From: Cyanidioschyzon merolae
Lineage: Eukaryota
Length of the DNA stretch: 64,000 nucleotides
Strand: one strand, 5' to 3'
Assembly (NCBI GenBank): GCA_000091205.1
Contig: AP006490.2
Below the pieces are notes generated by a model. The model was not told where the DNA came from and made no database searches. It was given only the letters and a program-made list of their open reading frames with translations. Below, piece by piece: positions 14,301 through 33,985 of the stretch. The position numbers were made by a program, and so were the translations under genes. Within the stretch, counting starts at the first letter, position 1. Each line of letters opens with the position of its first letter.

Positions 14301-15505
14301 AGCGCCGGATGAGCGCGGTAGCGCGTACGCTGAGCGCTGGCGCCTTCGCTGGTGTCTGGGATGATGCGCTCGCCAGCGCCTTGTGCACTGCTGTGCAGGA
14401 GCGGTGCTAGCGTAGGCTGCCAGCTCCACGCACTCGGCCAGAGCGGGTGCGGTGGTGGTGTTGGCGGCCACATGAGCGGCCGCGGCGCATGGTGGTGCCA
14501 CAGCGGTTGCTCTGGGTTCGGGGTGCGTTCATCGAATGCGTCGTACAGGTACGGATAAGCCTGGTGCAGTTCTGGAGCGCGACGTTGACCAGGCAGGATG
14601 GAATGCATACCGAGCTCCGTGAAATCGTCCCAGTCCTCCTGGAGCAGATGCGCGCCCTCGCTGTGCAAAGAGCCGGCGTGTAGGCTCTTACGTCGAAGGT
14701 TTGCACGCTCATGCTCGAGTCGATGCACTCGTCGCAATGTCAAGCGATTTCGCAGATAGAACTGACTTGGATCCAGATCGTTCGGGTGTGGCGCCCACGG
14801 CAAACTCATCCGGTAGAGCGCAGCACGCGCCTCCGGTGTGTGCAAATTCGCGGCGAGCTGTTGGATTCGCTCGTATTCAGCTGCCGCGTCTGCATCGTTA
14901 GCAAATGGTGTCGGCAGCGTTCGATGGTAGACAAACTCGCGGAAGCTCGGTGACGGCTCATCGTCGTCGAACGCCGGCACTTGCAAACGTACGAAGGAAC
15001 GCGTCAGATCTCGCTGCCGCTTTCCGCTGCTTGTCGAGGCGACGTGTGCCTCATGACGACGACGGTCGAGGTAGGCGCACCAACGCGCCCATTGGGCCCG
15101 ATGAACGACCTCGGGGACTCGACGTGAACCCTCGATAAAAGCCAACGCACCAGTGTGATGGAAAATCACGGGTACAAACCGCGTTGGCTCCCAAGGGGCC
15201 GGCATGTGTTCCAGCCATTTGTACACCGCGTGCGGAAGGTAGCGGAGCGCGTTCAGTGTCAGTGCATCTGTGTTCCGGGAGATATGTCGGTCTCGGTTAC
15301 CACGGTGGGCACTGTTTTCCAGGTCATTTTCGCTTCGCTCCAACTCGATCCGTGCAAGACTCGCTAGTTTGCGGAAAATATCGGGGGAGGTATACGGTTT
15401 GAAAAATGGCTGATCCGCTCCGAAAGCACGGCGTGGCCGCTTTCGCTTCAGGTCCAGCGTCTGATCTGCCTCTTCGTCGCGTCCGAAAAACGCACGTTTG
15501 GGCAT
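8318..15505 (-). CDS. PRP8: pre-mRNA splicing factor PRP8 (U5 snRNP), unusually divergent, intronless
   Basis: PRP8 signature blocks are present: [39 protein letters not shown] (GPGCGFW in human), [63 protein letters not shown] and a C-terminal MPN-like tail. Roughly 50% identity to human PRP8 in the core, by eye. The track start 15514 is TTG; the first ATG is 15505. Ends with TAG at 8318-8320. Confidence 0.9.
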   Translation of the reverse strand: [2395 protein letters not shown]

Positions 15506-16739
15506 GAGATACAACGACTCGTACGAGGAAGGATGTGCTCGTGGATTACTTGCGACGAAACACGGAGTTCAGCGTGCTCGCTCTCAGCCTGAACTAGCAC
15601 TCTCCGCGTGTTTCCGCGGCGCTAAAACAATGCTCCAGACTAACGACTGATCATAATCATTATCAACCAGACGGCAATCCTTCGAACCGAACAGCGACAA
15701 AGTCGTTGACGCTCCAACAGGTCCTGGGAACGGCAGCAACTGCCGAGTGCTTTGCGCGACTTTGGAAGGCGCGACGCGTTCACAGAAACCGGCGCTGTAG
15801 CGTGCACCCCTCGCTCCAAGAAGAAAGTGTCAACTGCGACGCCTGGTTTGTGCGCAACCTTTTCGAGGTTCTGCACCACGAAAGAGTGCGTCTTATGCTG
15901 TTCAGAGGAAACTAGTTGCAGCAGCAGCCGCGGCAGTCGTCGGACGACAGGGTTTACAAAAAAGACGGAACTGCGACTTGTGTGCGACGCCCGCTGCCGC
16001 TCCGGTGGTGCTCAGAAAGTCGATGCGCGAGGTTGGTTCACGACGCTGCGGGGTCTGCAGGTGCTAGGCGATCTCGTATGCCGAAGAGCACCACGTCGGA
16101 TAGTAGTGCTGTCTCCAGCTGGCTCTCGCGTGGTTACCGACACACCAAGCCACTTTTTTAACGGATATGGTGTAGGCACCAGGTGACAGCGTAAACACTC
16201 GTTCGTTTGAACAGGAACACCAGCAGCACAGCTGCGCTGTGCTGTCAGGGAACCCAAGTTCCGCTCCCGTGGTGGTGCTTATCTTCATAGGTTTCCGACA
16301 CCCGTGTCAGTTAGAAATGGACCGCTGGACTACTCGCTGTGTGCCTGGTTTTCGATCTTGCGAATCTTTACTAGATATACAAGCACGACATTCACAGTGC
16401 GGCAATAATGGTATAGGAATTCATAGCTAGTTCTTCAGGATTCTTGGTCATGGTTTCCGAATGGGTTCTTCGACGTTTTGTTGCAGGAATTGCTCACGTT
16501 ACCGAAAACACGATGATTCGCGACGCCATCCAACAAGGTCTCTGACCATGATCGATATCATGATCCAATGTAAAGGTACAAGTCACAATTCTTCTCTTTT
16601 TCTCATGTGCAGTATGCTCGAATCACGCATGCCTCAACTCGTCGATGTTTGCGATACAAGGCAACTCGTAGGCACAGCAATTTGCACCGCTCGACTGACG
16701 CACGGGAAAAGCAATCGACTTCGCCCGGTGACGATTTAT

Positions 16740-17950
16740 TCACAAGCTCAGGCCGAAAGTTCACTGTAATCGCCACGTTCGATGATCGATTCGGTTCGGA
16801 ATACGAATCCTCCAGTCTTTATGGCCATCGAGCGAGCCGCATTCGAGAGCAGCAGCGTGATGCCTCTCACGGAATGTGCTCCCAGAGGCTTCCGTGTCTT
16901 CTGTTTGCATAGAAAGTGAGGCCCTGTGCTCGGACTTGCGTCATCGCAGCGAACACGTCCGGTAGAGTGCGTAGCGCCGCTTTGCATGCAGGAAGCATAG
17001 ACGGATTCAAAATTATCGACTTGTTCTCCAGCCTTGACTTTCCTTTCGGTCCGTGCCACATTATCAACAACATCGCATTCCATAAATCCATGATCAAATG
17101 GAATTACTGGTGCTTGCTTGTGTAGAAGATCCCGAACTAGCCGAGAGGTTATGCCCCAGCGAAGATCGCCATCGTCAGGGACGGCACCAAGCGCGAAAAC
17201 GGAAAAGGGCATCATGTGAAGCCTGATCTACCTCTTGAAGGGCATGGACAGAGCGGTGAAGCAAACGATCATGCGCTGCTAGGTAGCATTCGAAAGAGAA
17301 GATGTGGTCGAAGTCTTGGAACACTTGACCGCAGTCACATGTAACCGTTGCAAAGGGCGCAACGAAGCTTTTTACAAACAAGATCGACATAGCCCAGGAT
17401 GCGCGTAGATTGCAACTGGCGCATGTACAAGACCTGCGTTGGCAACAGCCGGGACTTACGAACTCTGGACTTGCACACTGCGAGCAGCATTCTGCGACTG
17501 CTGACGACGGAGCATGAGCGAGGTGAAAACCCAGCGTATTGAAAGCTGAGCATAAGAGAGAGGAGGCGGAAAGCGTCGCGGAAGCAAGGCCTGCAAAGCT
17601 TGTGTTGATGAAACTTGGAAAATGCCCAAGCATGCGCCTGCACGCCAGTCTCAGCAGAGTGCACCATTAGCATTTCATTCTGAATCCAGCGTACGGCATC
17701 CCGCAGCGCGTTAGCGCTCGTTGCACATGGCGATGAATGACGGCCATCGCTGTTCATTGTCAAAAGACTAGATCCGCGCGCTGCGTCGCAACCAGTCGGT
17801 CCCTGGGCCGCACCTATGGTGCGACGATGCATACCCTGAGCTTTCAGTGCACACAGATAGGCTCTAGATCCCCGCACGGTATCGGTGATGGATAAGCAGC
17901 GACGCAAAACGCTCGGAATACGAAGGATGAAGCTTTGCCTGCCTCGCATT
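16740..17950 (-). mobile_element. TnpB/Fanzor-like element, family 2, copy a (degenerate, with frameshifts); inverted relative to copy b at 26.1-27.4 kb
   Basis: Homologous to 26140-27355 at both nucleotide (~75%) and protein level. The segment contains the helix before RuvC-II (DRLLHRSVHALQEVDQ, cf. TnpB [20 protein letters not shown]), a WG segment (ALGAVPDDGDLRWGI, cf. LALSISDAGWGEF), a GSRAYLCALKAQGMHRRTI block (cf. TnpB GSARYGKAKTKLARIHKRI), and a C-terminal LLLSNAARSMAIKTGG where the DRDxNAAxNI Asp is replaced. A ~25-nt 3-prime tail after the stop (gtgaactttcggcctgagct) is conserved between the two copies. Confidence 0.4.
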
Positions 17951-18620
17951 CCAAATACTTCCCATCATGTGGACGCAGTTGAGCGTTTTTTGGACAGCGA
18001 CCAACGTCACCAGGAACCCGGTATGCTGTAGAACTGAGTGTGAGCAGGGTGCATTACGTGTCAGCTACCTGCGATGTTCAGACCGCGTGAGAGCCGTCCA
18101 GAGCAGCGCACCTGCGTATCGTACGATACTCGTTGCCGATCCCAAATGCTATGCAAATGCTGTAGATATGAAGCATGCGGTTCACTTCCATAGCGACATG
18201 TCGTATGGAAAAAGATGACGTCTGCACGCTGGTTTTTCCTCATATACTGCAGTGCCCTCAAATCGTTCACCTTGCACAAAGGCGTACCGATCTGAACGCC
18301 CCAGGCGAGCAGATCGAGCTCGACGCTGCCCAGCAGCTAATGATTCCCGTTTCAGACATGGTTCGCATTCCGCTGAAGCGGGTGTGTGGATGCTGTGCGA
18401 TCCCTCGTGTTGGGTGACGCGCTGCAACACGCCCGGTATTCGAAAACAAAGCGTACTCTTCGTACAGCCTTGGTTGGCTCGGGCTGAGCGGCGGTACGCG
18501 TCGCTGCAGACGGCGTGCGTCGCTGGACTCCCGGTTGCGACTGTGGCACTGCGGAGGCGGCTTTCACTGTGCGCTGGCCAGCGAACTAGCGTATTTTGGT
18601 GCAACGCACAGCGCATCAAC

Positions 18621-20165
18621 ATGTCCCGTAAGCTCAAGTCCGTAGCGACTGCCTCCACCGTCGAACCGGAACGAGTTCGCGTGGCCAACACGAAGCCGGT
18701 CTACCCAGACAGGCGCTACGTGCTCTATTGGGTACAGGCGTCGCCGCGGATTCTCGAAAATCACGCTCTGGAATATGCTATTGAACGAGCGAACGCTTTG
18801 AACAAACCATTGGTCGCGTGCTTTGGTGTGACGGATAAGTATCCCGAGGCGAATCTTCGCCACTACCGTTTCCTACTCGAAGGACTCTCTGAACTCTGGG
18901 AGGATCTGCGCAAGAAGCGAGGCGTGGCGTTTCATGTCTTGTACGGCCCACCGGATGAGGTGGCTGCACAATGTGCTCGCGGAGCTGCCTGTGAGGTCGT
19001 CACGGACCTCGGTTACATGCGCATCCAGAGGCAGTGGCGAGAGCGGCTCGCCCAGGCCCTGGACTGCCGCTTGACGCTCGTGGAATCCGAAGCCGTGGTA
19101 CCAGTAGAGCTTGCCTCAGAGAAACACGAGTTTGCAGCTCGCACGCTACGTCCACGAATCTGGGCTTACATTCAAAGGTTTTGCGTGCCGCAAGCGCCGC
19201 AAACATTGCACCACTCGCAGCTGGAAATACCAGTTGATCACGGACCGTATTCGGAGCTGTTCGAAGAGTGCCCTATTGACGACAGCGAAGCGCCAGAACG
19301 CATTGATGCGGCACTAGAGCGTCTCGAGTCGCTAGATCGATCGGTGCCGGCAGTCTCACGTTACTTTCGGGGCGGTACCAGTGAGGCTCTGCGGCGTTTG
19401 GAGATTTTCTGCAGTACAAAGTTGTCCTTTTATGGCGAAGGGCGCAACCAGCCCCAGAGTGACCATACGAGCTGCCTGTCTGCGTACTTGCATTTCGGTC
19501 AGATATCTCCTATCACCATAGCATTGGCGGTTTGGTCACGAAAAGAGACTCCCCGAGAGTCCCGTGATGCCTTCATTGAAGAGTTGATTGTGCGGCGCGA
19601 GTTATCGTTCAATCACTGTTGGTATCGTCCGGATGACTACGATAAACTGGATAGTCTGCCCGAGTGGGTCCATCGAACGTACGCGGAACACCGCGATGAT
19701 CCACGCGAGCACTTGTACGATCTCGCGAGTCTCGAGCAAGCGCAAACGCATGATCCGTACTGGAACGCTGCACAAAAGGAAATGGTTCTCACGGGCCGCA
19801 TGCACGGCATGATGCGCATGTACTGGGCTAAGAAAGTGATCGAATGGACGCCATCCTGGGAATGTGCCTTTGACTGGCTGATTTATCTCAACAACAAGTA
19901 CGAGCTGGATGGTCGTGATGCGAACTCATTTGTTGGGGTGCTGTGGTCCTTCGGTTTACATGATCGAGCGCATGCCGAGCGAGCGATTTTTGGCAAGCTT
20001 CGCTGGATGTCGCGAGATGGCCTCGAACGCAAGTTTCCCATGCATGCGTACCTTGAGCGGATACGGGCCCTCGACAATGGCGCTTCGTGGGAGGATGCGG
20101 TATCTAGTGCAGCCTCGGCGACGAAAGATGATGGAAAGAAGCGCATCAAGCGGCCCCGTCGGTAG
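18621..20165 (+). CDS. class II CPD photolyase (deoxyribodipyrimidine photolyase)
   Basis: Shows the class II photolyase blocks YVLYWVQASPRILENHALEYAI, SAYLHFGQISP, FIEELIVRRELSFNHCWY, MHGMMRMYWAKKVIEWT, YLNNKYELDGRDANSFVGVLW and FGKLRWMS. The track ORF 18252 has an implausible Arg-rich leader; the first sensible ATG is 18621 (MSRKLKS...), giving ~514 aa. Confidence 0.9.
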   Translation: MSRKLKSVATASTVEPERVRVANTKPVYPDRRYVLYWVQASPRILENHALEYAIERANALNKPLVACFGVTDKYPEANLRHYRFLLEGLSELWEDLRKKRGVAFHVLYGPPDEVAAQCARGAACEVVTDLGYMRIQRQWRERLAQALDCRLTLVESEAVVPVELASEKHEFAARTLRPRIWAYIQRFCVPQAPQTLHHSQLEIPVDHGPYSELFEECPIDDSEAPERIDAALERLESLDRSVPAVSRYFRGGTSEALRRLEIFCSTKLSFYGEGRNQPQSDHTSCLSAYLHFGQISPITIALAVWSRKETPRESRDAFIEELIVRRELSFNHCWYRPDDYDKLDSLPEWVHRTYAEHRDDPREHLYDLASLEQAQTHDPYWNAAQKEMVLTGRMHGMMRMYWAKKVIEWTPSWECAFDWLIYLNNKYELDGRDANSFVGVLWSFGLHDRAHAERAIFGKLRWMSRDGLERKFPMHAYLERIRALDNGASWEDAVSSAASATKDDGKKRIKRPRR

Positions 20166-20569
20166 GGTGCTCGAAGCGCTCGCTGACTCGCGTCGCGCTG
20201 CGGGTGATGATGCCTGCCCCCAGCGTTTGCTTCGAAGCCCTACGTAATGGAAGTGTATCACAGCAAAAGTCGTCAAGCGGAATGGGAAACGCACCAAGCG
20301 CCGTGAGATATGAAAACGTCTTCATCGTGCGGCATCAGGGAATCGAGCTTGACTCGCTCGGAAGCAGGGATCCTGATGGTTACCAGGCTACTGCACACAC
20401 GACTTGCGCTGAGGGCACCTAATCGGAATCTCGTTCTGCAGCACTAGATGCCAGATGAGGCACCTGCGTGTTTCTCAGGACGTCAAGCGTGTAGCTGTGC
20501 ACTCCACTTGAGCGTCACAGCCTCGGGAACGGTTACCGTACCCATGCGGAAAATGTTTCGGGGGTCGGT

Positions 20570-22260
20570 TCATCGACGCTGCTGACGCGGGCACGCGCCG
20601 ACGACAAAGTCGTTCTTCGGCACCTCCTGCATCGCAGGATCCGCTGCCTTGTTTTCTCCATGCCTCACCGAGGGTGGCGACGAAGACTGAACGCGACGAT
20701 CTACCTTCAAGCGCCGATAGTGTACACATATGGCTACTCCATCGGTTTCGATCATACCAGTATACCTTTTGCTTGCTCGTTTTGACACGTTGGAAATCGA
20801 AGATATATTCTTCAAGTGCGTCTCACGGCTTTCGGCGGCGAATTCTATCTTCCATACATCGAACTCCGATCTGATCTCCTTCATGATGCGGTAGAGGATT
20901 CTGGAGTCGATAGCCACAAATTGTGACTTGATGCTGCACAACGGAACGACACGGAAGTACTTACCCATTAGGGCAGCCTGCCGTTTCTCTGAATCTTCAT
21001 TTTTCCCCCTTCACCTGCCTCCATCTCCGCCTCGCGTTCGAGTTCTCGGTTCAGGAACACGATATAGCGCAGGATGAGGGGATAAAATCTATTTTCATCT
21101 GTTTTCATATATGCTACCTGTTCTGCTGGGTTGACCAGCCCCAAAACTGCACGGTGCTCTTGAATAGGCCCACGGGTTCCAGGAGCGCCATTCTTTCTCC
21201 TGTGTGATGTGCTCTCGTCGACGAATTCGATTTCCTTTTCATTCTTACTATCGTTAGTGATGCCATCGATGATGGTCCATCTTGCCCTGCGAGAGCGGCC
21301 TGGGTACAGCGCAATGATGGAGCGTACAATGAAGCGTTTGAGGTTCACGATCATGTAGTTCCTCCGGTTCTTGAAGTACTTGATCGCCGCGTAGGTGTAA
21401 ATATCCGCGTTACCCCTTATGTTGCGTACCGTCGCAGCGGTATTCGGGCTGGATTTCGTGGGGGCCATATACTTGCTCATTTGTCCTCGATGTATCCCCC
21501 GTGCTAAGCACCAGATAGCTGATGAATGTCTTGTCGAAAAATTCTTACGGAACCTCGACTGTTCTGATGTCTATCACGTCGCGATGGATCTCCTTCACCA
21601 AACGCACTAGTCATGAAGAAACCTTCTTAATAATCGATGAGTACGACTCGACAAGGTTTCTGATGCCCTGTTGGAACTTTTGCTTGCACGGATCCTTGAT
21701 ACGTCCGAGAGGAGTGGCTTTCACCACCATCTCGTCGTCCTGTTGTCGTTCGTGCAGCTCGTGACGTCTGACCTCCTCCTTTTGCTTCGTCGTCTTTTCC
21801 TGTTCCTAACTGCTCCGCTGTGTTTTTCGTTTTTTTCCGGCAACCGGCGATACCTGCCCTCCAGCATCCTGCATTTCGTTCTCCATGACATCCCCTTTTT
21901 ATTTTTGTTTTGGAAAACAACTCACTTTGAAAGCTCCTGCTATAAAACGCGAGAAACCACTTGAAAACACTAATTTGAGGGCTAAAACCCCATCGAAATG
22001 AAAGACTGTAACTTTTTATGACTTCAAGGCACATACAACTTGTGCATCAGAACAACAAGTCATTGAATGGTTAAGATCGCGTTTCCCTTCAACGGCGGCA
22101 TACGCGTCGTGTCTCATGCCTGCCAGGTCTCCCAGGTGCGCGTATCGATAAAAGACACGTGTCCGACGCCGCATTCGCACATGCGTGCTCTCACCGGCGC
22201 TCTGCGGCACATGCGGCAGCTGGTAATTTAAGAAAAACGAAAAAGCGGACATTCCCGCGC
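20570..22260 (-). pseudogene. TnpB/Fanzor-like element, family 1, copy A1: N-terminal (WED/REC-like) half only, ending just before the RuvC-I position
   Basis: ORFs 21627-22034, 20968-21480 and 20570-20968 (-) are collinear homologues of 40462-41825 (+). Shared segments include [100 protein letters not shown] and [30 protein letters not shown]. There is a TAA where copy B2 has Asp, and an indel in a G-run at ~20990. Homology stops at ...DFVVGA. Confidence 0.6.
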
Positions 22261-23760
22261 GGATGATCTGAGCTTACAGACTTTCAATTCTATTGCGTTT
22301 CGCCCCCGCTGCAGTGTATATGAGGACGTCGAAATAACTGTGCAACTTACCGTATATATCGTAGGTAAATTGTCTGCAGGATATATTCATTACTGAACAG
22401 CTCATGGAGGACTGCGTTCATCCTTCAGGTCAGTCGCACAATAATACGCAGATGGTTGATGAACACTGAAAGTAACAAGTAGGTAAGCACCGCACCAAAA
22501 ACTGGTATTCTCAAAGACTGCTAGCGATCAGTGGTAGAGAGCGACTCTTCGCTCACCGTACGGAAAGTTGGAGCGACGATAGAAGCCACTGCGACCGTCT
22601 CTGTTTCTCAACAGCTTGTTCACATTGCCCTGAAAACGCTGGGATACATTCGCAAAAGAAGACTCCATTCATTCACGGCCACCTTCCACCGGAATTGTAA
22701 CGACAGCGCTCCGGGTACCCAGCGATCGGTATGAAGCACAGGGTCGCCGGGTTTGCTTTTCCATTCGTTGAGACTTTCTTCGGACGCAACGGTCGGAGTA
22801 TGTATGGGTATTCGCGAAGCAGGGCCCCCGTTGTAAATACGATCGAAATCGAAGAGAACGAGGATATCTTCATCAGTCTTAGCTGCAGTGGATTCATTTG
22901 ACGGCCTCAGTTTCGCACCTACGGAAGGCGCATACAACAGAACCCTCTTCGTCGGATCATCGAAGACTTTTCTCAGACGTCTGGTGACGTCCTTCGATTC
23001 CACAATGTTGCATTTCACCATTCCCCTTGCATTCGAGTTTTTACTGAATCTTTCGGGATAGAGCTGCTTTCCATTCCTCCGTGCGCTCCTTGATTCAACG
23101 CCATCGAGGGAGCATTTTGTATCGTGAAACGTAATGATCGCTTTCCTTGCCGAATCGCTGAAGCGTCCGGCGTACGGTGCCACACCAGGGGCGCATTTCG
23201 TCTTTTTTCCACACGTCCTTCTCTGTCCATGCAGGTTCTCACCTTAGTGCATCAAGAAGTGTGTTCGTTTTGAAGAAATACAATATCCAAGAGATTAGCT
23301 GGGGTGTACACTCCAGAAGGTCGAGATAGAGAGTGGCCAGCGAAGCGCTTCGGCGATAGAAAAGCACGAAGAGGTGGCAGAGCAGCAAACGGCACAGAGA
23401 GAACCTGTTCGAGGAATCTTTGCATTAGTGCGTCCAACCAGAGGCAATCAACGTACGGAGTTCGTGGACCAAGACTTCAACGCCGTCATCCATATCAAAC
23501 GATGCGTGGTGCGGATGACGAGATTCGCGGACCTGATACGATCCAACTTTATGGGCCAGCCGCTCAGGCTCAACGTGTACAAAGAGAAATTGGAATCGAT
23601 AGCAGGGGTCCGGTCTTTAACGACTGGGAGGCGTCTGCACGTCGGTATTCATTTACCCTCCATAACTGTGAAACATTTAGTGTTTCACTGACTCTACAGA
23701 AGACGGCAATGGACTTGGGCCTGTGTCCCCTTAAGGATCGATTGCATTGAAGCATGGGTC
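22260..23760 (+). pseudogene. TnpB/Fanzor-like element, family 1, copy A2: 5-prime-truncated unit carrying the C-terminal RuvC-III region; head-to-head with A1
   Basis: Nucleotide-collinear with 38170-39600. ORF 23374-23691 carries RTEFVDQDFNAVIHIKRC (RuvC-III-like, Asp at 23473-23475) and a conserved tail ...RSNFMGQPLRLNVYKEKL. Frameshifts relative to copy B2. Confidence 0.55.
23374..23691 (+). pseudogene. RuvC-III-bearing C-terminal fragment of family-1 TnpB/Fanzor-like gene (copy A2)
   Basis: Shows EFVDQDFNAVIHI, which fits the TnpB DRDxNAAxNI pattern. Confidence 0.5.
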
Positions 23761-24670
23761 TCCGCTTTGCACCAAGGCGACATAGACTGATAGAAATATC
23801 TGGATGAGTTCCCAATCTTTGGTTTTTTCGGGTACTTATCGCATCATGGACAACATCGCGCACCGCAAATCCTCGATTCACTGGAACAGTGAGCGCTTGC
23901 GTGTGCAGCTGACAACGCACTCGCATACGGGATTGTACAGAAGAAGCGCGCCATAGCACGGTGCGACACCGGCGAAGTAGATTGCATCTATCCCTCTGGA
24001 CCCTTCAACGGCATATACCAAGCTATAAACCAAGCGTTTTCGTGCTACAGGGCGACACTGGAATTACGCAATGTGGTAGACGCATAGGAACATCTCATGA
24101 GAGTCAGGTGTCACGGTTGCGAAGCGCTCAGCGAGGCTGTGTACCTAGAACTTGAAACAGGCCTGCGAAGCGTAGGTCGCAACTCTCGCATCTGCACGGA
24201 ATGCACCAACGACTGGCAGAAGCGGTGAAATCGGGACCCGGACACTGCTATCCACAGCCTTTCGACAACGAGCAACGGAACTGGAGGGAAGGAATACCCC
24301 AATACATATAAAAACGTAGATGAAACAGTGGAAAAAGAGACCAGTTGAAGAAAAAGCTCCCAATGACTGGTATTGATGATCGTAGGAAAACCCGTAAACA
24401 CTGGAGTGTATGCCGCAGTCAGCAAAACGGACCCTTTCCAGGGTCGTCTGACATGACAGCATCTGGAGAATCCACGAATGCGCAGCTGCAGCAGAGGCAA
24501 CGGCAGCGGCAGCAGCGGATGGGCGTGCTCTTCACCAAAATCACGCAGCGGCGCGCTTTTCCGGCAGCGCGCTCGAAGCCGCGATGGTGAGAACAAGATT
24601 CACACAGGAACTGCCGCGGAACACAGGAACCAGACGAGTATTTGTTGCGTGACTTGTTCGACAGAAGCCC

Positions 24671-25939
24671 ATGTTCGTTGGTGCACCTTTCTACGGTGTT
24701 GGCAGCTTTGGTCCATTCGACGAAGGACGTTTGCAGAGCCCACAGCGAGGCTTCCGAACGCGCACCCGTCGTGCGGGGCACTGCAGCGTACGCACGCTTG
24801 CGCTTCAGGCGAGCGGACCGCACAGAGCGCGCAGCTCGCGCAAGAAGACGAAACGGAGAGCAAGTCAAACCGAAGGATCCACCGAAGAGTTTGAAATAAC
24901 GGATATACCTCTGAGCAACTTCAGCTTTATTCAAGCGGACGGCAGTGTGGACTGGGAGCGGTTTGAAACCTTCTCCAGCCGCAGCTGGGAGGAGACCCAA
25001 ACGGTAGTTCGGGAGGTACCAGAAGACCTTCCATTAAACGCTGATCCTGACGTGATTCAGGCTAGTGACGAGCAAACGACGGAGCTAGGCGCTGGACCTG
25101 GTCCAGCGGCACTGACGCTGTCACGGGACGAGCTCCAGTCTCCGGGGAAGTATGAGCGGATTACGAGCCTAGGTGCGCTTGGCGTTATCGCACGTGACGG
25201 CCTGGTCGAACCGCTGGATACGGCCGCTCGAGCGTTGCGCGAGCAGGAACTCGTCTATGTGACGTTCAGTGTCTCGCTTGAGCGAGACGGGGATGCATTT
25301 GTGCGAGGTCGTGTCCGCACTCGCTTTCGGAATGAGAGCTGTGATCGATGTGCAACTCGCTTGGAGATGGAGGTCCGCAGTTCGTTTGACGTTTGGATGG
25401 CGTCTCGTGAGGACGCCGTTCCCAACGCCGAAGCCGGCGATCCGCGCATCGAGGAAGCCATCGAGCCTTTCCATGCTGGTATTGAGGCGGTCGACTTTAC
25501 CAAGCATGTCCGGGAAGCCATATGGTTGGGCATTCCCTCTCGGGTGCTTTGCGCAGACCAGCAGTTATGTCGGACGCGGATGCAGCAGATAGGTTGGCAG
25601 TTTTCCGGCAACAGTGGGGACGCCACCATCCAAAACTTTGGGCCTGACGACCTGGTGACTCGAAACCAGCAGCGGTCGCCATCGGTAATCCCTCAGAAAG
25701 ATGCCCGGAAAAGTTCAAAGAAAAAAGAGATCCAACCAGGACAGCGACAACCGCAGACTACAACTCAGGCGATGGCTGTCGACACACGAACACTGCGGAG
25801 CCTGGCAGCGCGCAACCCAGAAGCTGCCAAAAAGCTCTCCGAAATACGAGAGCGCCTGCTCTCCGGTGAAAATGAACAGCAGACGCCGCCCAGATCGCCG
25901 TCGTCGGAGGGCCCTCATGAGTCACACCCTAGAATATGA
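24671..25939 (+). CDS. DUF177 / YceD-like protein (candidate plastid rRNA-accumulation factor)
   Basis: Shows VRGRVRTRFRNESCDRCATRLEMEV...DVW...EEAIEP...AVDFTKHVREAIWLGIPSRVLCADQQLC, which matches the DUF177 pattern (the C.RC block and the L..P...LC tail). It has a long N-terminal extension and a charged C-terminal tail. Confidence 0.55.
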   Translation: MFVGAPFYGVGSFGPFDEGRLQSPQRGFRTRTRRAGHCSVRTLALQASGPHRARSSRKKTKRRASQTEGSTEEFEITDIPLSNFSFIQADGSVDWERFETFSSRSWEETQTVVREVPEDLPLNADPDVIQASDEQTTELGAGPGPAALTLSRDELQSPGKYERITSLGALGVIARDGLVEPLDTAARALREQELVYVTFSVSLERDGDAFVRGRVRTRFRNESCDRCATRLEMEVRSSFDVWMASREDAVPNAEAGDPRIEEAIEPFHAGIEAVDFTKHVREAIWLGIPSRVLCADQQLCRTRMQQIGWQFSGNSGDATIQNFGPDDLVTRNQQRSPSVIPQKDARKSSKKKEIQPGQRQPQTTTQAMAVDTRTLRSLAARNPEAAKKLSEIRERLLSGENEQQTPPRSPSSEGPHESHPRI

Positions 25940-26139
25940 GTGCATTTCGCTGCCGACACCGACCCGTCACCACCCTTCCATGGACCGTTTCGATTGCGAG
26001 TAGTGGAGAGCACCTGTTTCATCAATACAGCAGCGGTTACCTTGTCGAGATGTACCAGACCTGCAATAGATCAGTTTGCGAGCAGGCAACTCGGATCATT
26101 TATCAATCTACCTCTGTGAACGGAACTCTGAGGTGAATA

Positions 26140-27355
26140 TTTGAGAGCACCTGCTCGGTTATTCGTTGCGAACACACGGGCTCAGTTTCGCGACGCTACC
26201 AGGCGCGTCGGCACGAACGCACCAGCAGCCACTGGTGCTGCGAGTCGCTGGAACGGGTGCAATTGCCGTTATTCAATAACCATAAACGAATGCCAAGCGT
26301 TTCAGGATCCACGCAAGGAGCTTTCCCTAGAGCAACGCATGTTGTACATGAAAACCGGAAATATAAGCGCTCCCTTTGGACCATGGTCTTCATTTTACTC
26401 GTGCTAGACTAGATCGGGACATGTCCGATACCTCGGGCCTATGATCTCGTATTGGGGTCTCTTGTTATTGTCATCAAAACTGGCCTTTTGGGGCTTTTTC
26501 TGTGACTGCTTCCGTTTTCACGATCTCTTAGCTCCGGATTTCTAAACGCAGGTCACTCCTGTCGCATTAGGTCCGCAATCTCTAACCAACGGGTGTTGAA
26601 GGCAGTTGTCAAGTCCCGATTACGCCACTTCAGGCTACCATCAACGCTTTTTTAACGCACGTGGAGGGTATAGTTGGGATCTCTGAACCGCTTGCCATTT
26701 CCTTTTTCTCTGGATACAGCGTCAAAGCGCCTTTCGCAGCGGTGACACGTGACCGTGTTCAGATGTTCCCGCATATCCATTGTAGCTCCGGCTTCGGTCG
26801 CCGTCCTGTGGCGCGTCAACGCTTGCTTCATCGTTCTGCGAATGCGCTTGACGAGTACGGAACGCAACCCTGGATGACCTGTTTCGTTTCCGCGCCCGAT
26901 ACCGTGCCCGAGAATCATCGGGGTCTGCTGGGCGAGCCTATCGCCGCGTACGCTACCCGCTGCACACGCTAGTGTATGCAGTTCGATTCGATTCAGGATT
27001 TGTGGGACGTGATGTTGTTCACAATGAAATCTGTACTAGGAAGAGAACTCCGGCTGGAGCATTCGTCTGGAAATTTCGATACGTCTACGCAATCTATTCG
27101 CGCACAACGGCAACGAACTCTCCACTGAAAACAAACCCTACAATGACGAAAACCGTGGCCCCAAATCCTTCTCCTCGGCAACAACAGAAGAGGTGGGAGC
27201 CTCTGGGGACGTGTCCCCGGACAGGTGTCACGTTACTGCTGTCGAATGCAGTTTCGTCGATGGCCACAAATCAGAAGAGGATTTGTCTTCTGAACGAGGT
27301 CGATAATTATTTGATTCGAGAATTTTTGTGAACTTTCGGCATGAGCTCGTAAAAA
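26140..27355 (+). mobile_element. TnpB/Fanzor-like element, family 2, copy b (degenerate); inverted partner of 16740-17950
   Basis: ORFs 26141-26407, 26661-26972 and 26972-27331 (+) match copy a. Shared segments include RRVGTNAPAATGAAS/RRTIGAAQGPTGCDA, APFAAVT...RLLHRSANALDEYG, TVPENHRGLLGE and a C-terminal GVTLLLSNAVSSMATN. The stop is TGA at 27329-27331, followed by the conserved tail gtgaactttcggcatgagct. Confidence 0.4.
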
Positions 27356-28481
27356 AGACGTCAAGCATTTCTACTCGTCAATGCAGTGGCTTGAATTGCC
27401 GCACCCACCAGTTGCCTTGGAAGAGAAACATTGAAATCCTGAAAAATGCATGATTTGAGCACACTACGCCAAAGACAAGGAGAAGAGCCGAGGATTCCGC
27501 ATGTGAATAGGATGACGATGTCTGCTGTTTTATGAACAGCTATTCGAGGGCGTCACGAATCATCCTCTTTCTGCTGAAGCAACGATATCCAGCGGCAAAG
27601 CGTCTTAGGGGCCAACCCGAACGCACAACCGAGAATCCTAAAATACTCATGAATCCGTAGGCCCTTGTTCCTGCTATTCGAACATCGAGGCTGTGCATGA
27701 AAAAAAAAACTACGCAAAAGAATCGAAAGACATGAAAACAGCGATCCGTTCAGAGTCCCATTTTAACCTGAACCCAGTTTTGTGCACCCAATATTCAAGA
27801 GGATCACGATCTCTTCCGACGATTGATGAGCTGCCTCTCCGGGACAGCATGCTTGCATACGAAAGCACGGAAATGTACACATATTCATATTTTCATGCGC
27901 GTGCATACACACGATGAATCCACCGCCCTCTCCGCAAACCTAGTACAGACAGCACGACATTTGACCTGGTGCATTTTGCCTTCGACGAAGAGACCGCTGG
28001 AGCTTACCGGGGCATTCTAGACTCCCGTAGCGCACGGCGTCTGATGCACCCGAGTTCTCAACAACGGGTCGGTGCGATCAAGACCTTGTTCCTTTTGGCA
28101 CGTTCCAGATACCGCATGCTCTGAAAACACGGTATGATGCGCCTGTAAAAACGAGGGAGCCAGTTGGCTGCACGACGCTGCCGATGCATATAACAGCGCT
28201 CCGCAAAAATTATCTTTCGGGACAGTAGATCTTTGGCTGGCGACGGAGCCAACGCTATACGCAGATAAGCGCCGCATCGCAGCGCTCCGTCCACCGCAGG
28301 CTCTATCCATTGCAGAGTGTTCCGCGCCGTGTCTTCCGAGCCACAGAGTCTGTCCAGAAGCGTCTCTGAGCACAGATCATACGTCTGCGATATGCGGGTG
28401 CAGCAGCACGGCAACGATACCAGTGCAGCCGTGTCGCACTTCACAGCTAGAAACGTCAAGTATCCCATCTACTGCCGCTCT

Positions 28482-29558
28482 CTACAACGCAGTGTATCCC
28501 AGCACTCGACGGGCGAACTCGTAGACCCAAAGAGTGATCATCGTGTGCGGCCCTAATCGGACGTATGCTGGTACCCAGCCTTTCAAGAAGGCGAAGGCGC
28601 CTTCTTTTCTCCATATCTGTACCGCGCAGTCTAGCATGCCACGATAAGCACCACGACGCGAGCCCTGTTGCGTCGTTTTAATCACGTCGAATGCAGAACT
28701 CGAAGTTGTCGAGAAAAATCCAGCCATCATTGCCGAACTCAGAAAAACACGGGTATCTGTTGCGGGCCATCCGCTTATGTCCGCGATCTTTGTCTTCACG
28801 ACATCATAAAGTCCGACCTGAGTCGCGGTTATGGTCGCTGCTCGCACAGCAGTGGCACTAGCGCCATTCCAGAGGCCCCAGATGACGCCAAATCTGGAGG
28901 AGCCGGCGTGTGCTCGCCCTTCTGCGGCCATTTCTTGAAGTACTTGCCATGTGTTGCGACACGGATACCGTCCAGACTGCATACGTACCTTGGCAGCTTC
29001 GAACGGCGTTCCGACTAGTGCTCCGAGAGCACCGGAAGTAGCACCAGCGGCCAGTTTGACGAGGACCGGCGCAGAAGGTACCGAAGAGGCCTCGGGTACC
29101 GAGCCGGCATCTGCTGACGTGTACCTGAGGCGTCTTTCAAAGACGCCCGCATACCAGTCACGAATCGGCTGATAGAGACCTAAACGCACGCCAGAGTAGG
29201 TCAGTGCTCGCCAGAACGCGGCCTCCAGACCCGACCACAGAGCTAAAGGGCCCTCTTCCCGAATGATGCGGTAACCGGCGTGGAGCATCCCACGATACCG
29301 CTTTGTTGCCCGATGTGCCTCCACCGTTGAGGCGTCGCTGTGTTCACTACTATCCAATCTTTGCAGCTGTAGGCGCGCTTTAATCAAGTCAAAAGGAGCG
29401 GAAACGCAGGTTGCCGTTCCAGCCGCGAGCGATCCCACTGCAAGCTGCGCGAAGAGTCCCGGTTTGGAGCGCTGTTGATGCACCGCTTCGGTGCTCTGGC
29501 GAGCAACCGTACCATTTGAAGCCTCTGGAGCTTTCGTGGACGGAACCGTGCTTTGCAT
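28482..29558 (-). CDS. mitochondrial carrier family (SLC25) protein
   Basis: Shows three tandem carrier repeats with PFDLIKARLQ, PFEAAKVRMQ and AFDVIKTTQQ signatures, with six hydrophobic segments. The ATG is the rc of 29556-29558. Confidence 0.8.
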   Translation of the reverse strand: MQSTVPSTKAPEASNGTVARQSTEAVHQQRSKPGLFAQLAVGSLAAGTATCVSAPFDLIKARLQLQRLDSSEHSDASTVEAHRATKRYRGMLHAGYRIIREEGPLALWSGLEAAFWRALTYSGVRLGLYQPIRDWYAGVFERRLRYTSADAGSVPEASSVPSAPVLVKLAAGATSGALGALVGTPFEAAKVRMQSGRYPCRNTWQVLQEMAAEGRAHAGSSRFGVIWGLWNGASATAVRAATITATQVGLYDVVKTKIADISGWPATDTRVFLSSAMMAGFFSTTSSSAFDVIKTTQQGSRRGAYRGMLDCAVQIWRKEGAFAFLKGWVPAYVRLGPHTMITLWVYEFARRVLGYTAL

Positions 29559-32500
29559 AAGGTATTGGGGCCAGTGTGCTATTCGAGGCTGGGGATTTCA
29601 CCGTGAGCTGTGATACTCGTCTCCTGGAAAAGGTACCAGAGCGTAAACGATACGTTCGCGCGAGCACCGCAGCCTCGCCTGTTTTTGACGAATTATACAA
29701 AATACCGCTCCCTGAATCAAAGGAAAAAGTCGCCGGATAAATACACCGAAGCAGTGCCTTTAAATATCAAGAGTAAAGGAAAAGATCAGCTTGCTTTTCA
29801 GACCATGAGACTCGAAAACTGGTGTTCCGTACGTTGCGGCGAAGCGAAACGCAGTGGCACCGCACGCGCACGGACTGCGGGGCGAACTTCCGCGGAGTAC
29901 GTGCGCACCATGCCCAGAGCCAGTTGTAGACTTGATCAATCCAAGGCGTTTTTTCACGAAGCAGGCTGAAAATTTTCTCCTGATGCTATCCTTAATTTGA
30001 TTTGTGGCAGCGTGCTTGCATATAGCGGTTGCATCCAAGTGGTGCACAACACGGTTTATGTTTCCTTGGGTTGCGGAGCTGCGCTGGCGTTGTGGCGCGC
30101 TCGGTTGCTTTCCTCAGCACGAAACTTCGAGAAACAACTCAAAACGCCGTATTGTCAGATGAAAAAAAAAAGCAGCAACATGGGCTTGTCGAGCGCCTGG
30201 ATTGAGTCCGCTCTGTCATTTTCGTCGCTGTGTTTAGACGATGCAGGGCCGAACGTCATTGGAGTGAGAAGAGCCCTCCGACGATGACATTGCGACTGAT
30301 GCCGCGAACTTGTGTGCGACATCGCCTACTCCGCTCCCGAGCGCGCCATAAAATCCTGAATTTCTTTGGAATTTGTGCTTGTGAATTGCACGTGGGTAAA
30401 AGCGCTGTGTCGAGGCCCAGGTTTTCCACAGCGGAGGTGCAGTGCAGGCACACCCAGGACCCGTTGTTGCTTGCGAAGCCACGCGCAGAGCATTCGGTCC
30501 ACTCCAGATGCCGGCACGTTTGCACTCTGCTGAATGCAGTAGGAGGAAGGCGCAGCTGACTCGGCTCTTGTCATGCAAAGAAACGATTCTTGGGGTGTCT
30601 CTGAGAGACGGACACGCATGCTCTGTTCTGCGTATCTTGCAGTGTGGTGTCTGATGCTCTGGACAGCGCATGATGCAGTATCTCTACCAGAATGCCTTTA
30701 TCGCCTTTCGTCGTTTTGTCGCAGGTATCCAACAGAAGGAATGTATCCTGTAGATTGTGGACAGGTGGAGGACGGACTTTTGTCTGACGCAGCTGGCTTG
30801 CAAAAAACCGTCTTAGTTGTACTATTCAGTAACTCTGAGCTCAGCAGGTGAACGCGCCGCCTTGCTCGTTGTCCTCGTTCTGAAAATGTCAAATTCGAAA
30901 CGTAACTTGTTTAATTCTGTCTCCGGGACTGTTTCCTCGTAACTCCAGTCCGATTCGTTTTTCTCAAAGGAATACGACAAAAGAACTTGCAGGATGGAAA
31001 GTTTTTGGACTGTTGATTCGAATCGTGATGACGAGCCGCGGATGCACAAAGGAACAGGTGCGCTTCCCAGGAGACGATTGTACCTTAAACAGCATGGAAT
31101 CGACTTGGAACTAGGAACGGAAACGCATACGACGCAAGGGACAGGTGTTCATCCCGCTCGATTATTGGTCATTTGGGAGAATTCTGCGACCGATATACGC
31201 GTATCCGAAGCGACAGAGACCTTGTCCCGTCAAGAGGAGACAAGCGAGCGTGATGCCAATATCAGCGCTGGTGGTCATTGAAACGGGTGGTCGCCTACCA
31301 GTCGCCAGATGGACAGAATCATTCTACACCGCATGCTTCGTCGAAGCACCTCTTGGACTCTTCTCAGCCGATTCCTCTGCCCTTGCCTCAGACAGTGTCG
31401 CTTTCCATCACTCAAAAGAAGTGAAGGAGCGCGCAGCTGACCCTGGCTTTAGGACGCTCTTCGTGTCAGTCTTTTCTGCCCCTGATGGAATCCAGTCGAA
31501 TGCGATTTGTCCGTCGTTACGCGCCGTTTTGGTGCCCAGGGATCAATCGGCATTTCGTTCGCATCCGTAACACCGTTCTTCGATCAGTGGCTCTCTATTG
31601 TCGGGAGCCCTGGGCTGCCCTGCTACCTCTCTACCCAACCGCGGGAGCCAGTGGAGAGCAGCGCTTCGGTCCATGGGCTTGCTCGCGACAGAGAAAGGAA
31701 CAAAAGTACCTGAGGAATCGTCAATAGGTGCATATACGGAAAAGGCGAGTTTCAGGCGCAGCATCAATCCATTGCGTCTAAATTCCGGGGAAAGAGATTG
31801 CGTAGCGTTTAGCGAACACATCCATGATAACACGCAGGTAAAGGAGATGACAAAGACATCGATGAACTCTGTGAGCAGCGATGGAGCATGAGCGCGACCT
31901 TGCGTCGAGCCGTGGCAGAACTCGTTTAAGGTTTCTCGGTTACCGGGAGAAAATACAAAAAATTTACAGGTTCGATGGAGATCACCAGAATATCAATCTG
32001 CTCGCACTTTGTGACATCTAGGCCTGTATCGGGCAGCGCGACTTATTTTGCAAACGTTCAAGGTAGATGAAGTGAAAGACTTGGTCGTGGGGATGCATTC
32101 CGGGCCGAAAGCGCGAAACTGCCGGTGCGGTATCCCAAAGTCGTGAGGAAGGAGCCAAACCCCTGAACGTAAACCAGAGGGAGCTATCCAGCATTTGCAT
32201 TGCCCGGTATGATCGCGAGTTGGGCATCACGGATGCGCGAAGGCATAGCAAGGAGTGGAATGATGGCATCAGGGCCTCGTTCGTATGCTCTGAGCACCGT
32301 ATCGAGCTAAGAGGTACGCTGTGTACGATTCATTCAGTGGGCACAAGGCATGTCCATGGCTCATGTGGACGAACTTTGGTTGAAGCATATAGGACGGCGC
32401 TGGGGTCACCAACGCTTGCGGTTGGACAGAGACAGGAGGCACGCACTCGCGCCCTTCTTCGATGAGCTGGAAACCGACTTGACCGATACCTGGCGTTGTT

Positions 32501-33985
32501 TCGTGAGAGCGCATAGCGCTGGACGGGCTGTAGCGTGCAAACGCTGCACTCCTGGTTTCATCGACGAGGTCCTCTAACGAGTGCAGGAATCAATTCTATT
32601 CGATGCCCATCGATGTGTTCACGACGACGCGTATGCGTTAAGAGTCCGAATGCAGGCTGAAACCGCAATACTAGAATAGCACGAAACACAGCCGGATGCG
32701 TTGGATGGTGCGTGATACACGCAGCAAATTTCTGATGGAGAGGCAGTCGCAGATGAGCCGCTTGCCACGGTGTGATGCCGCAAACCACCACGCGTACAAG
32801 CACTATCTGCATCCAGACTCGAGCGCCGCGATCAACATCCGGAATTGTCTCGAGCCTCGGCAGCGTCCAATGACTTGGCGAATTTTCGAGCGAATCGTTT
32901 CGTGCTCACCGTTGGCACTATGCTGAGACGCCGCGGATCGTAGAAGAAAAGATTAGTCATCAAGAAAGGCAGGCTTCGATTCTCGCCCACAGCTCGACAA
33001 TGCCATGGTACCGTCCAGCGATCCAGCAATGCTCGAGCGCCGCCCATATGTACACGAACCTCAAGGGCAAGTGGTGAAAAACAGCAGTGTCCTGGCATTC
33101 GAAATTAGTCAGTATACGCGGATCCTCTGGGATGATATTACCTGTGTTGACGATAATGCTGGATGAAAAACGAGTGCACCAGCGAGAGAGAACGATCATC
33201 ATGCATACGCACGGAAACGCAGTACCGCAAGGCACAGCGCTTTTCTACCGACGTGTCGTCGATCACGGGTAGACCTTGACCTAGCCAACGGGTGCTAGCG
33301 TTGCCTCCAGTCCAACCAATTCGTCACCGAAAATACCGGGACTTGGCCTCGTGCAAGCACTGAGAGTCACTTGGGGCTAGCATTGACCGCGAGCATGTTC
33401 ACGACCATACCGCATTCCTAGAGTGAACGATGCCTGCTTGAATGATCTGTTCTCTAAAATCTACCTCCCTTGTACTCCATCAACGAAACTGGTCCCTACT
33501 TCTGTATGTGTTCTTCTCTGTCAATCTTCGACTCGTATCCAGCTGCTGACATGAATGCAGTTGCGAACACAGGCAGAGTGCATGCGACCCAAGCCCGCTC
33601 GCTGCCGCATGCTCGTTCGCTTCGTCATCATCATCATCAGCGACATCGACATCAGCCTCTTGACACGACCTACAGGCTTCTACACTGAACCTGGTGCCGT
33701 TGTTGCACGGTGCTGGCCTAGTGGTGTTCCCGAGTATATCGGGGCGTGCTTGCATTAGTACCTTTTTAACTGCGCACAAGCCCGTGAGAGGCCCGGCGCT
33801 GTCGCCATAGACGCACGACACCTGAAACGTCCAGTCGAGAGCACGTCGTGTGACAAGTGCTCAGAGCGCTGCTCGCGAGGTTGATGTTTGGTCTTGACCT
33901 GGCCAATGTCTCCTCTTTGTGTTGCTCAGCTTCGATCAGTGCATGGATGATGCTTTTCGTTCGAGTCATGCGTATGGTGTATTGT

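Follow-up and report, generated by a model that had tools for sequence, protein, structure and literature searches.

An inverted repeat pair in Cyanidioschyzon merolae is very probably debris of an internally deleted IS630/mariner element with a Fanzor1 3′ end

What is the inverted pair of repeats near 17 and 27 kb in this 64-kb window (the whole stretch analysed) of nuclear DNA from the intron-poor red alga Cyanidioschyzon merolae 10D, and has it rearranged the genes between its two arms? A sequence-only reading took the repeats, here copies A and B, for TnpB-like genes whose RuvC-III aspartate had been replaced before they duplicated. We use the working name family X for the repeat family of this pair. 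Our analysis indicates that A and B are very probably two of many fixed, dead copies of a non-autonomous Tc1/mariner-IS630 element, internally deleted from a parent that carried a transposase gene followed by a Fanzor1 gene.

Copies A and B are indeed homologous and inverted (blastn E 1.7e-10; nhmmer E = 0 for each). Their identity is 57.7% over 1407 aligned nucleotides (nt), with a longest exact common run of 13 bp, and not the ~75% first reported; a mean column identity of that size for two sequences corresponds to ~50% identical columns. Nor are they just a pair. A DNA profile (nhmmer) and tblastn find five copies in the window, all about equally distant from one another (53-58% pairwise identity), and one of them, E, sits inside what had been described as a 9.3-kb segment between A and B, abutting a 3′ fragment of another Fanzor family, CMe-1A. 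Final element limits were set from the terminal inverted repeats (TIRs) rather than from the nhmmer spans, which are added here for each copy:

16297-17693, + strand (sense): copy A, 1397 bp, a complete but decayed, non-autonomous IS630/mariner-type element (nhmmer E = 0 and TIRs; nhmmer span 16298-17621, +)
26394-27781, - strand (sense): copy B, 1388 bp (nhmmer E = 0 and TIRs; nhmmer span 27785-26460, -)
52421-53748, + strand: copy C (tblastn, nhmmer and TIRs; nhmmer span 52417-53704, +)
60921-62307, + strand: copy D (tblastn, nhmmer and TIRs; nhmmer span 60917-62236, +)
23695-24461, + strand: copy E, 3′ half only, 5′-truncated (nhmmer E 1e-82 at model positions 617-1323, and tblastn; nhmmer span 23695-24387, +)

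The limits proposed earlier for the pair (16740-17950 and 26140-27355) missed ~440 bp of element and included ~260 bp of flank that does not belong to it. In JGI metagenome contigs, a scan gave fifteen loci from C. merolae populations in the environment, and these represent another eight paralogs. None of the eight is orthologous to A-E, and the family total is at least thirteen loci. The family consensus is 1.45 kb long. Copy C is found at the same site in environmental strains (98.6-99.4% identity), as is copy D in eight environmental contigs (99.3-99.6% identity). Copies C and D are old and fixed. Family X appears to be undescribed for C. merolae; the only entries for this species in PMC3627910 are CMe-1A and TE-N2_CMe.

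Aligning the ends of ten to twelve copies gives a TIR consensus of TACACTCGTGTCAGATGAAAATGGGAC at the 5′ end and GTTCCATTTTATTCTGACACGGGTGTA at the 3′ end. The 5′ consensus matches the reverse complement of the 3′ consensus at 23/27 positions, with TA outermost at both ends, and the expected bounding ends of an element are TACACYCGTGTCAG...CTGACACGGGTGTA. Individual window copies match the TIR consensus at 16-22 of 27 positions, where chance matches in shuffled sequence have a 95th percentile of at most 15/27 and a maximum of 18. The repeats of the pair are placed as follows:

16297-16323, + strand: copy A 5′ TIR, GACACCCGTGTCAGTTAGAAATGGACC, 20/27 against TACACTCGTGTCAGATGAAAATGGGAC, its first two bases at the consensus TA position
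17667-17693, + strand: copy A 3′ TIR, 18/27 against GTTCCATTTTATTCTGACACGGGTGTA
27755-27781 (20/27) and 26394-26420 (17/27), - strand: copy B TIRs

The 5′ half of the element is derived from a transposase. A thirteen-copy consensus of this half matches the NCBIfam IS630 family transposase profile NF033545 (E 9.5e-15, profile positions 51-238 of 299) and Pfam DDE_3 (PF13358; E 1.5e-10; 41.5 bits, above the 28.6-bit cut-off; positions 3-97 of the 146 in the profile). The consensus carries two catalytic Asp motifs, FVAIDETAF for the first and FIMDNIAFHKS for the second. It is 37% identical (E 5e-23) to a transposase encoded on JGI contig Ga0335250_1271054 (locus L031, described below) and 27% identical (E 1e-5), from the first to the second Asp, to the transposase of the Mariner element PUl-1. 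The DDE triad is incomplete in family X, the third acidic residue lying beyond the end of the profile coverage, and the PPYSPxxNPIE segment seen in the L031 transposase and in that of a second contig (L029, below) is absent. In the pair, this half is represented by two relics:

16461-17101, + strand: copy A transposase relic, the N-terminal ~215 codons of IS630/DDE_3 type, with an ATG at 16461 and an end just past ...FHKS.I.W
26984-27615, - strand: copy B transposase relic, with the first Asp (27256-27258) kept as GAC and the second-Asp position (27017-27019) now AAC

In copy A, the first-Asp position (16830-16832) now reads GAG and the second-Asp position (17066-17068) AAC.

The 3′ half is derived from Fanzor1. 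We built a hidden Markov model (HMM) from seven published Fanzor1 proteins (CMe-1, CVu-1, CRe-1/2/4/5 and VCa-1; PMC3627910 supplement), for which all E-values use Z = 1. The sense-strand consensus scores 45.7 bits against this HMM when made from five copies and 65 bits when made from thirteen (E 4e-22), and copy B alone scores 14.5 bits (E 1e-6). An hhalign comparison of the family X consensus with Fanzor1 gives 97% probability. The four-copy sense consensus, ...VVEVWEHLTTVTCHRC...CKKC...NRDLHTAISILRLL, matches PF07282 (Cas12f1-like TNB, formerly OrfB_Zn_ribbon), as do the consensus of five copies (E 6e-5) and that of thirteen (27.7 bits, cut-off 26.3). The consensus is also 50% identical (E 6e-43) to residues 527-690 of P0172, a Fanzor1 protein of 701 amino acids (aa). 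An exhaustive profile search of 1.84 billion representative proteins returned 463 proteins at E <= 1e-3, many of them 680-800 aa long and matched at their C-terminus.

The active-site motifs of this half can be placed one by one. In Fanzors, Gly or Pro occupies the canonical RuvC-II position, and an alternative Glu follows ~45 residues later, ahead of [TS][TS] (PMC10530073); the pair is given as G500/E536 in PMC3627910. The family X consensus is rearranged in the same Fanzor1 style, with Gly in VIVGYGTG and the alternative Glu ~40-45 residues further on in DIWEHLTT; the codon for this Glu is retained in copies A, B, C, and E. A C4 zinc ribbon (CHRC ... CMKC) is present in the consensus, though some of its Cys residues are lost in individual copies. 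RuvC-III reads NRDLNAAINILRLL (NRDLNAAINIL), and a terminal RPxY is present as well. The sequence-only reading held that the RuvC-III Asp was replaced in both members of the pair. It is not: GAC occupies the homologous codon in A (17468-70), B (26613-15), C (53563-65), D (62083-85), and E (24235-37), all five copies of the window, and in most of the paralogs outside it. Copy C reads ...CMKCVDNNREQRYRDLNAAISILQL in this part.

What is missing is the rest of the protein. Homology to Fanzor1 begins at the equivalent of P0172 residue 527, so the RuvC-I Asp (D-X(125,275)-[TS][TS] in a complete protein) and the N-terminal part with WED and REC are absent; in P0172, RuvC-I (GIDPG) lies near residue 417. 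Since the homology starts after RuvC-I and the sequence upstream of it is transposase, family X reads as a fragment of a Fanzor1 gene and not as a Fanzor1 gene. The two relics of the pair are:

17102-17654, + strand: copy A Fanzor1 relic, the last ~175 codons and a basic tail, in a frame that differs from that of the transposase part
26428-26983, - strand: copy B Fanzor1 C-terminal relic, with the Gly motif at ~26907-26927, the alternative Glu at 26766-26768 (GAA), CHRC at 26736-26747, and the RuvC-III Asp at 26613-26615 (GAC)

In copy A, the Gly-motif region is 17159-17179, with the conserved Gly codon itself now AGG. The alternative Glu is at 17319-17321 (GAA), the first CxxC at 17340-17351, and the second CxxC position, which has lost its first Cys, at 17426-17437. 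For a structured guide (omega) RNA in the 3′ tail, RNAalifold applied to the last ~280 nt of the five decayed copies returned -6.2 kcal/mol and a covariation term that was unfavourable; neither the Rfam nor the tRNA scan of 14-30 kb had a match.

The boundary between the two halves was located from stop-codon counts in twelve copies. The transposase frame is open to consensus nt ~870 and the Fanzor frame thereafter, and the halves lie in different frames in the consensus and in ten of the twelve distinct copies compared. An intact counterpart of this arrangement exists on the L031 contig, where a DDE_3 transposase open reading frame (ORF) and the Fanzor1 gene for P0172 are immediately adjacent on the same strand. 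The transposase ORF there begins at the contig edge with VCVDETGF and contains MDNVAFHKS...PPYSPWYNPIE. The sequence following the P0172 stop codon, GTTGCAAAATAACCTGACTCGAGTGTA, matches the family X 3′ repeat at 19/27 positions, including 13/15 at the end. From this architecture and the homologies above, it follows that family X would be such an element minus ~1.8-1.9 kb.

The history that we propose is as follows. The parent was probably an element of ~3.2 kb that inserted at TA, bounded by 27-bp TIRs and encoding on one strand an IS630/DDE_3 transposase and then a Fanzor1 of ~700 aa. It would have moved by DDE cut-and-paste at TA sites, and its Fanzor1 may have acted as an RNA-guided nuclease, by analogy with other Fanzors (PMC10530073). 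A single internal deletion of ~1.8-1.9 kb, from a few codons past the second transposase Asp to about Fanzor residue 526, would have fused ...MDNIAFHKSSIEW of the transposase, out of frame, to the C-terminal ~175 residues of Fanzor1 (...YRMEQHALACAAD-...-KKPVIVGYGTG...). RuvC-I and the rest of the Fanzor N-terminus would have been lost in the same event, as would the third DDE residue. Because family X has neither a complete DDE triad nor RuvC-I, the deletion derivative would have been mobilised in trans through its terminal repeats. It would have spread once the Cyanidiococcus lineage had split off, and neutral decay has since brought its copies to ~58% pairwise identity.

Several points weigh against this account. 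Single decayed copies fall below significance against IS630, and the transposase assignment rests on consensus sequences; the Fanzor assignment is likewise consensus-based, with B the only single copy to reach significance against the Fanzor1 profile, and that weakly. We infer TA duplication from the consensus ends, and TA is found at only about half of the individual ends (5/10 at the 5′ side and 6/12 at the 3′ side, with no empty sites compared). The junction, at consensus nt ~845-855, is blurred by ~100 nt across which both frames are open, and copies C and E have a spacer near it that is 2 nt shorter. Lastly, L031 is the only intact relative, its contig is cut within the transposase so that the 5′ repeat is unseen, and a full-length parent was not found in C. 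merolae itself.

Fragmentary relatives of the Fanzor half also occur elsewhere. The closest intact-looking ones came to light as three short ORFs (P0018, P0020, and P0021), of which one lies shortly after a transposase C-terminus. These are fragments of full-length Fanzor1. P0018 (216 aa), which lies next to a transposase C-terminus and has a dN/dS (ratio of nonsynonymous to synonymous substitution rates) of 0.07 against P0020, was considered as a natural half-size Fanzor and rejected, as P0024 is a 756-aa Fanzor1 with the same C-terminus. Its AlphaFold2 model (P0018; mean pLDDT 64.6, core <50) was too poor for a fold search. P0018 did serve as the scaffold on which stop-free fragments were aligned; MAFFT alignments made without a full-length scaffold stacked unrelated parts and were discarded.

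Two contigs from ENA extend this picture. The first (L029; k141_1566108, 1114 bp, GC 33%) carries an internal-deletion derivative that arose independently in an unrelated, low-GC organism. Downstream of the C-terminus of an IS630 transposase, codons 1-23 of a P0024-like Fanzor1 are fused to the final 216 codons of that gene. On the Fanzor side, this breakpoint and the family X one are within ~10 codons of each other, perhaps by chance and perhaps because this is a preferred deletion point. In the second (L028; k141_52703, 33 kb, GC 44%), the related Fanzor C-terminal ORF P0021 lies near the contig end, and genes for a PIF1 helicase and for a Prim-Pol-like protein of 778 aa are also present, a context that looks virus- or plasmid-like.

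Family X copies are pseudogenes in neutral decay. Against the consensus ORFs, each window copy has three to eight premature stops and one to eight frameshifting indels (three stops and five indels in A; five and four in B). Mismatches are equally frequent at the three codon positions, and synonymous changes make up 0.22-0.30 of the codons with a single difference, compared with 0.238 expected at random. The proposal of a catalytically dead lineage kept under selection does not fit this pattern; the real loss is that of the N-terminal three quarters of Fanzor1, RuvC-I included, by deletion. Across 5.8 billion proteins, word-indexed searches returned only fragmentary ORFs from other decayed copies; neither an intact family X ORF nor an annotated C. 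merolae protein was among the matches. Nothing in family X works today.

One environmental strain is unusual in its orthologue of copy C (L004, 17212-18099, -), where a continuous ORF of 295 codons runs across both halves, with CAA in place of the TAA of the window. Compared with the family consensus, this ORF remains frameshifted, and no profile matches it. From the CAA/TAA difference it follows that stops in these relics are polymorphic in the population. Neither this 295-aa ORF nor any single window ORF had an NCBIfam match, and a tblastn search of the window with the PUl-1 transposase gave no significant match.

These data bear on whether the junction could instead be a selected chimeric or domesticated gene in which a transposase N-terminus is fused to a Fanzor zinc-ribbon/TNB C-terminus. 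The breakpoint in L029, from an unrelated organism, lies within ~10 codons of the one in family X, and copies C and E restore a single frame, both of which speak for such a fusion. However, the halves are out of frame in the consensus, every copy has stops and frameshifts, the dN/dS-like ratio is near 1, and no annotated C. merolae protein or intact ORF turned up among the 5.8 billion proteins searched. The dN/dS of 0.07 for the L029/L030 ORFs is explained by descent from a full-length Fanzor1 such as P0024. We consider a selected chimeric gene very unlikely.

To ask whether the inverted pair had moved or flipped the block between its copies, we turned to the host genes around it:

8318-15514, - strand: Prp8
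18252-20165, + strand: photolyase (limits of the ORF as listed, not a mapped start; the orthologous position in relatives has PF00875 DNA_photolyase)
24671-25939, + strand: DUF177/YceD-family gene (homologues carry PF02620; the Cyanidiococcus orthologue is 54% identical)
28482-29558, - strand: UCP-like carrier (identical to C. merolae 10D BAM79837)

Syntenic loci were reached through homologues of the DUF177/YceD gene. Cyanidiococcus yangmingshanensis (L009) and another lineage (L010-L012) both have Prp8 (-), photolyase (+), YceD (+), Mito_carr (-), and peptidase M14 (+), the same order and orientation as in the window. The spacers in these relatives are 0.7-1.5 kb long, compared with 2.5-4.5 kb in the window, and neither the family X nor the Fanzor profiles matched their 21-kb loci (L009, L010-L012). 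Contigs from environmental C. merolae break at the CMe-1A repeats. Because relatives without the insertions share order and orientation, the block is ancestral: its genes have kept their original positions between A and B and have not been inverted. The extra C. merolae DNA in this block consists of insertions, and it is incidental that A and B point in opposite directions.

The sequence-only reading had made the 8.7-kb block between the copies a candidate for inversion by ectopic recombination or for movement as a composite transposon, which A and B, being inverted and having recognisable though decayed TIRs, might seem to allow. The unchanged synteny in both insertion-free lineages stands against this, as do the low identity of A to B and their exact matches of at most 13 bp, far under what homologous recombination needs. 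No transposase source was found, and the repeats match the consensus at only 17-20/27 positions. Taken together, these observations leave an inversion or a composite transposon highly improbable.

We give just as little credence to family X being a single compact and complete Fanzor of ~355-390 aa, in which IIDSVRNTN would be RuvC-I and SRQLVGAAI a TDG-like motif. The motif spacing did look colinear with CMe-1 residues 370-700, a global hhalign alignment placed the motifs in this way, and the environmental copy C has its continuous 295-codon ORF over both halves. Yet the N-terminal half matches IS630/DDE_3 profiles (E 1e-10 to 1e-14) and the L031 transposase (E 5e-23), and the supposed motifs (IID, RQLVG, and 'HK') are the transposase helix-turn-helix and its first and second Asp motifs (FVAIDETAF and MDNIAFHKS). 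The hhalign confidence in that region is nil, and the two halves are out of frame in ten of twelve distinct copies.

The peptide strings from which a TnpB-like protein was first proposed do exist in the frames given, and are antisense read-through of decayed coding sequence:

copy A, - strand: LLLSNAARSMAIKTGG at 16808-16855, VPDDGDLRWG at 17153-17182, and DRLLHRSVHALQEVD at 17226-17270
copy B, + strand: LLLSNAVSSMA at 27233-27265 and QRLLHRSANALDEYG at 26817-26861

A further string said to be shared, GSRAY...HRRTI, falls beyond the end of the element (17815-17871), and copy B does not have it. The decisive segment, LLLSNAARSMA (in LLLSNAARSMAIKTGG), had been aligned to DRDxNAAxNI; this alignment is spurious, as the string is the antisense of ...NTNPPVFMAIERAAFESS, the first-Asp motif of the transposase. 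Pfam searches with the ORFs on the strand first read (- in A, + in B) and with a consensus of that strand gave no TnpB-related match even at E <= 10, and all three frames of it score below 0 bits against the Fanzor1 HMM. That A (-) and B (+) encode a dead, TldR-like TnpB lineage whose RuvC-III Asp was lost before duplication has virtually no probability: the strings exist, one is loosely like DRDxNAAxNI, and the antisense frames hold ORFs of 100-200 codons, but that strand has no TnpB or Fanzor1 match, the opposite strand has strong transposase and Fanzor1 matches, the key string is antisense to the first-Asp motif, the true RuvC-III Asp codon is intact in five copies, and substitutions are neutral. 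What survives of the proposed third TnpB-like family is that the DNA is TnpB/Fanzor-derived and distinct from CMe-1A; the strand and the motif assignment were wrong.

CMe-1A is the one Fanzor1 family listed for C. merolae, described as an element of 3169 bp without TIRs that encodes a protein of 734 aa (CMe-1) and has ~150 copies at ~80% identity to the consensus (Bao & Jurka 2013, PMC3627910). Searches with the published consensus (blastn) and with CMe-1 (tblastn) identify it with the 'family-1' of the sequence-only reading, and the content then listed for the segment between A and B (a photolyase, CMe-1A pieces, and a DUF177/YceD gene) is correct. The window has four pieces:

20594-22148, - strand: truncated CMe-1A, consensus 653-2195 and CMe-1 residues 1-432 (81% by blastn; CMe-1 tblastn)
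23294-23646, + strand: CMe-1A 3′ fragment, consensus 2737-3092 and CMe-1 residues 613-729
39151-39579, + strand: CMe-1A piece
40303-42954, + strand: nearly full-length CMe-1A, consensus 648-3145 at 83-86% identity, CMe-1 residues 1-733

A blastn comparison of the CMe-1A and family X consensus sequences gave only chance matches of at most 14 nt, and CMe-1 in tblastn had no match in copies A-E. By these comparisons, family X is distinct from CMe-1A. On PF07282, CMe-1 scores 11 bits (E 0.52) and is without the CxxC pairs (DEFRTSYTHHELGC...), compared with 27.7 bits and CHRC...CMKC for the family X consensus; thus the two C. merolae Fanzor lineages differ in their zinc ribbon. The 5′ 635 bp of the published CMe-1A, which correspond to TE-N2_CMe, are absent from every copy in the window. 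The copy at 40303-42954 has a tandem duplication of ~75 bp at 41780-42009.

Copy E begins ~50 bp past the CMe-1A fragment at 23294-23646, whose own end would be ~77 bp further on, and no 5′ half of E was found nearby. The arrangement at 23294-24461 suggests a nested insertion, or a deletion that removed the 5′ half of E. Two CMe-1A 3′ fragments are directly preceded by the members of a repeat pair of ~0.9-1.2 kb (22348-23290 and 38273-39150; 68-69% identity). The second of these repeats (38882-39301) is still 28% identical to CMe-1 residues 535-665, and the pair looks like a diverged CMe-1 subfamily rather than CMe-1A proper. A much more diverged Fanzor1 relic is present at 31951-32869 (+), matching CMe-1 residues 370-689 (tblastn, 26-27% identity, E 6e-8) and, weakly, the Fanzor1 HMM at 32573-32851. 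It has no ORF of more than 90 codons and is neither CMe-1A nor family X. With five family X copies, four CMe-1A pieces, and this one, the density of Fanzor-related relics in 64 kb is high. The C. merolae genome is ~16.5 Mb in size. At that size, the published ~150 copies of CMe-1A would give ~0.6 per 64 kb.

Three of the four full-length family X copies have their 5′ ends close to the start codons of divergently oriented genes: A (16297) is 783 bp upstream of Prp8, C (52421) 304 bp upstream of a Nup155-like nucleoporin gene, and D (60921) 184 bp upstream of a Rho GTPase gene. The Rho-family GTPase ORF in the window is identical to C. merolae 10D BAM79844. Copy B lies between the 3′ ends of the YceD and carrier genes. 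These positions may simply reflect that only spacers tolerate insertion in a compact genome. Two short tandem duplications are unrelated to family X. One (58307-58523; 93-nt period, 97.6% identity) is between a UCH gene and the Rho GTPase gene; the other (45548-45671; 64-nt period, 95% identity) follows the nucleoporin gene (47267-52117), ~1.6 kb beyond its stop codon.

These results remove a false lead, since the pair is ordinary transposon debris and there is no Asp-less or 'dead' TnpB lineage, inversion cassette, or composite transposon here. They also make a modest addition: beside CMe-1A, the compact C. merolae genome has an old, non-autonomous IS630/mariner family with a different Fanzor1 3′ end. 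For reading sequence without other aids, the case is a caution, as decayed coding repeats show long ORFs and common 'motifs' when read in antisense, and the true protein homologies were recovered only from a multi-copy consensus and not from single copies. It is a long shot, though a better one than any of the alternatives above, that family X records a second, independent Fanzor1 lineage of the Cyanidiophyceae, borne on mariner/IS630 and, in contrast to CMe-1, with a canonical C4 zinc ribbon, whose full-length and active parent (transposase and ~700-aa Fanzor1, as on L031) survives in a Cyanidioschyzon population or in a virus infecting these thermoacidophilic algae. If so, that parent would encode a natural eukaryotic RNA-guided nuclease adapted to heat and acid, and the old family X copies would mark its past target sites.

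Family X is of a known kind, the Mariner-type Fanzor1 elements, and its significance is small. The bacterial TldR proteins, to which the pair had been compared, are reportedly nuclease-dead, TnpB-like, RNA-guided regulators, encoded by intact genes under selection and accompanied by guide RNAs. The likeness to family X is only in the general theme of a TnpB relative without part of its RuvC active site; here the missing part reflects deletion in a non-autonomous transposon, the residue claimed to be lost is present, and the copies are neutral pseudogenes. CMe-1A shares with family X its genome, its protein superfamily, and a similar age (copies ~80% identical to the consensus), but has no TIRs, no transposase, and no zinc-ribbon Cys in CMe-1. 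The L031 element is the closest intact relative found, with MDNVAFHKS for the MDNIAFHKS of family X, the same zinc-ribbon spacing, and a 3′ end of CTGACTCGAGTGTA for CTGACACGGGTGTA. Unlike family X, it has both genes open and a full-length Fanzor1, and it is not a C. merolae sequence.

Fanzor1 genes are known to ride in Mariner elements with TA duplications (PMC3627910; PMC10530073). Family X belongs to the same superfamily as the Mariner/Tc1 Fanzor1 elements PUl-1, PGv-1, and PUl-4 (PMC3627910; the association is given in PMC10530073). It differs from them in being internally deleted to 1.39 kb, where they are 3.4-3.8 kb long, in lacking the third DDE residue, the Fanzor N-terminus, and RuvC-I, and in having only pseudogene copies. 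Its host is a red alga, for which no Mariner-type Fanzor element is listed. Shared with these elements are an IS630/mariner DDE transposase upstream of Fanzor1 on the same strand, TIRs of ~24-33 bp with TA ends, and, in family X too, the Fanzor1-type Gly and Glu, the C4 zinc ribbon, and the RD of RuvC-III.

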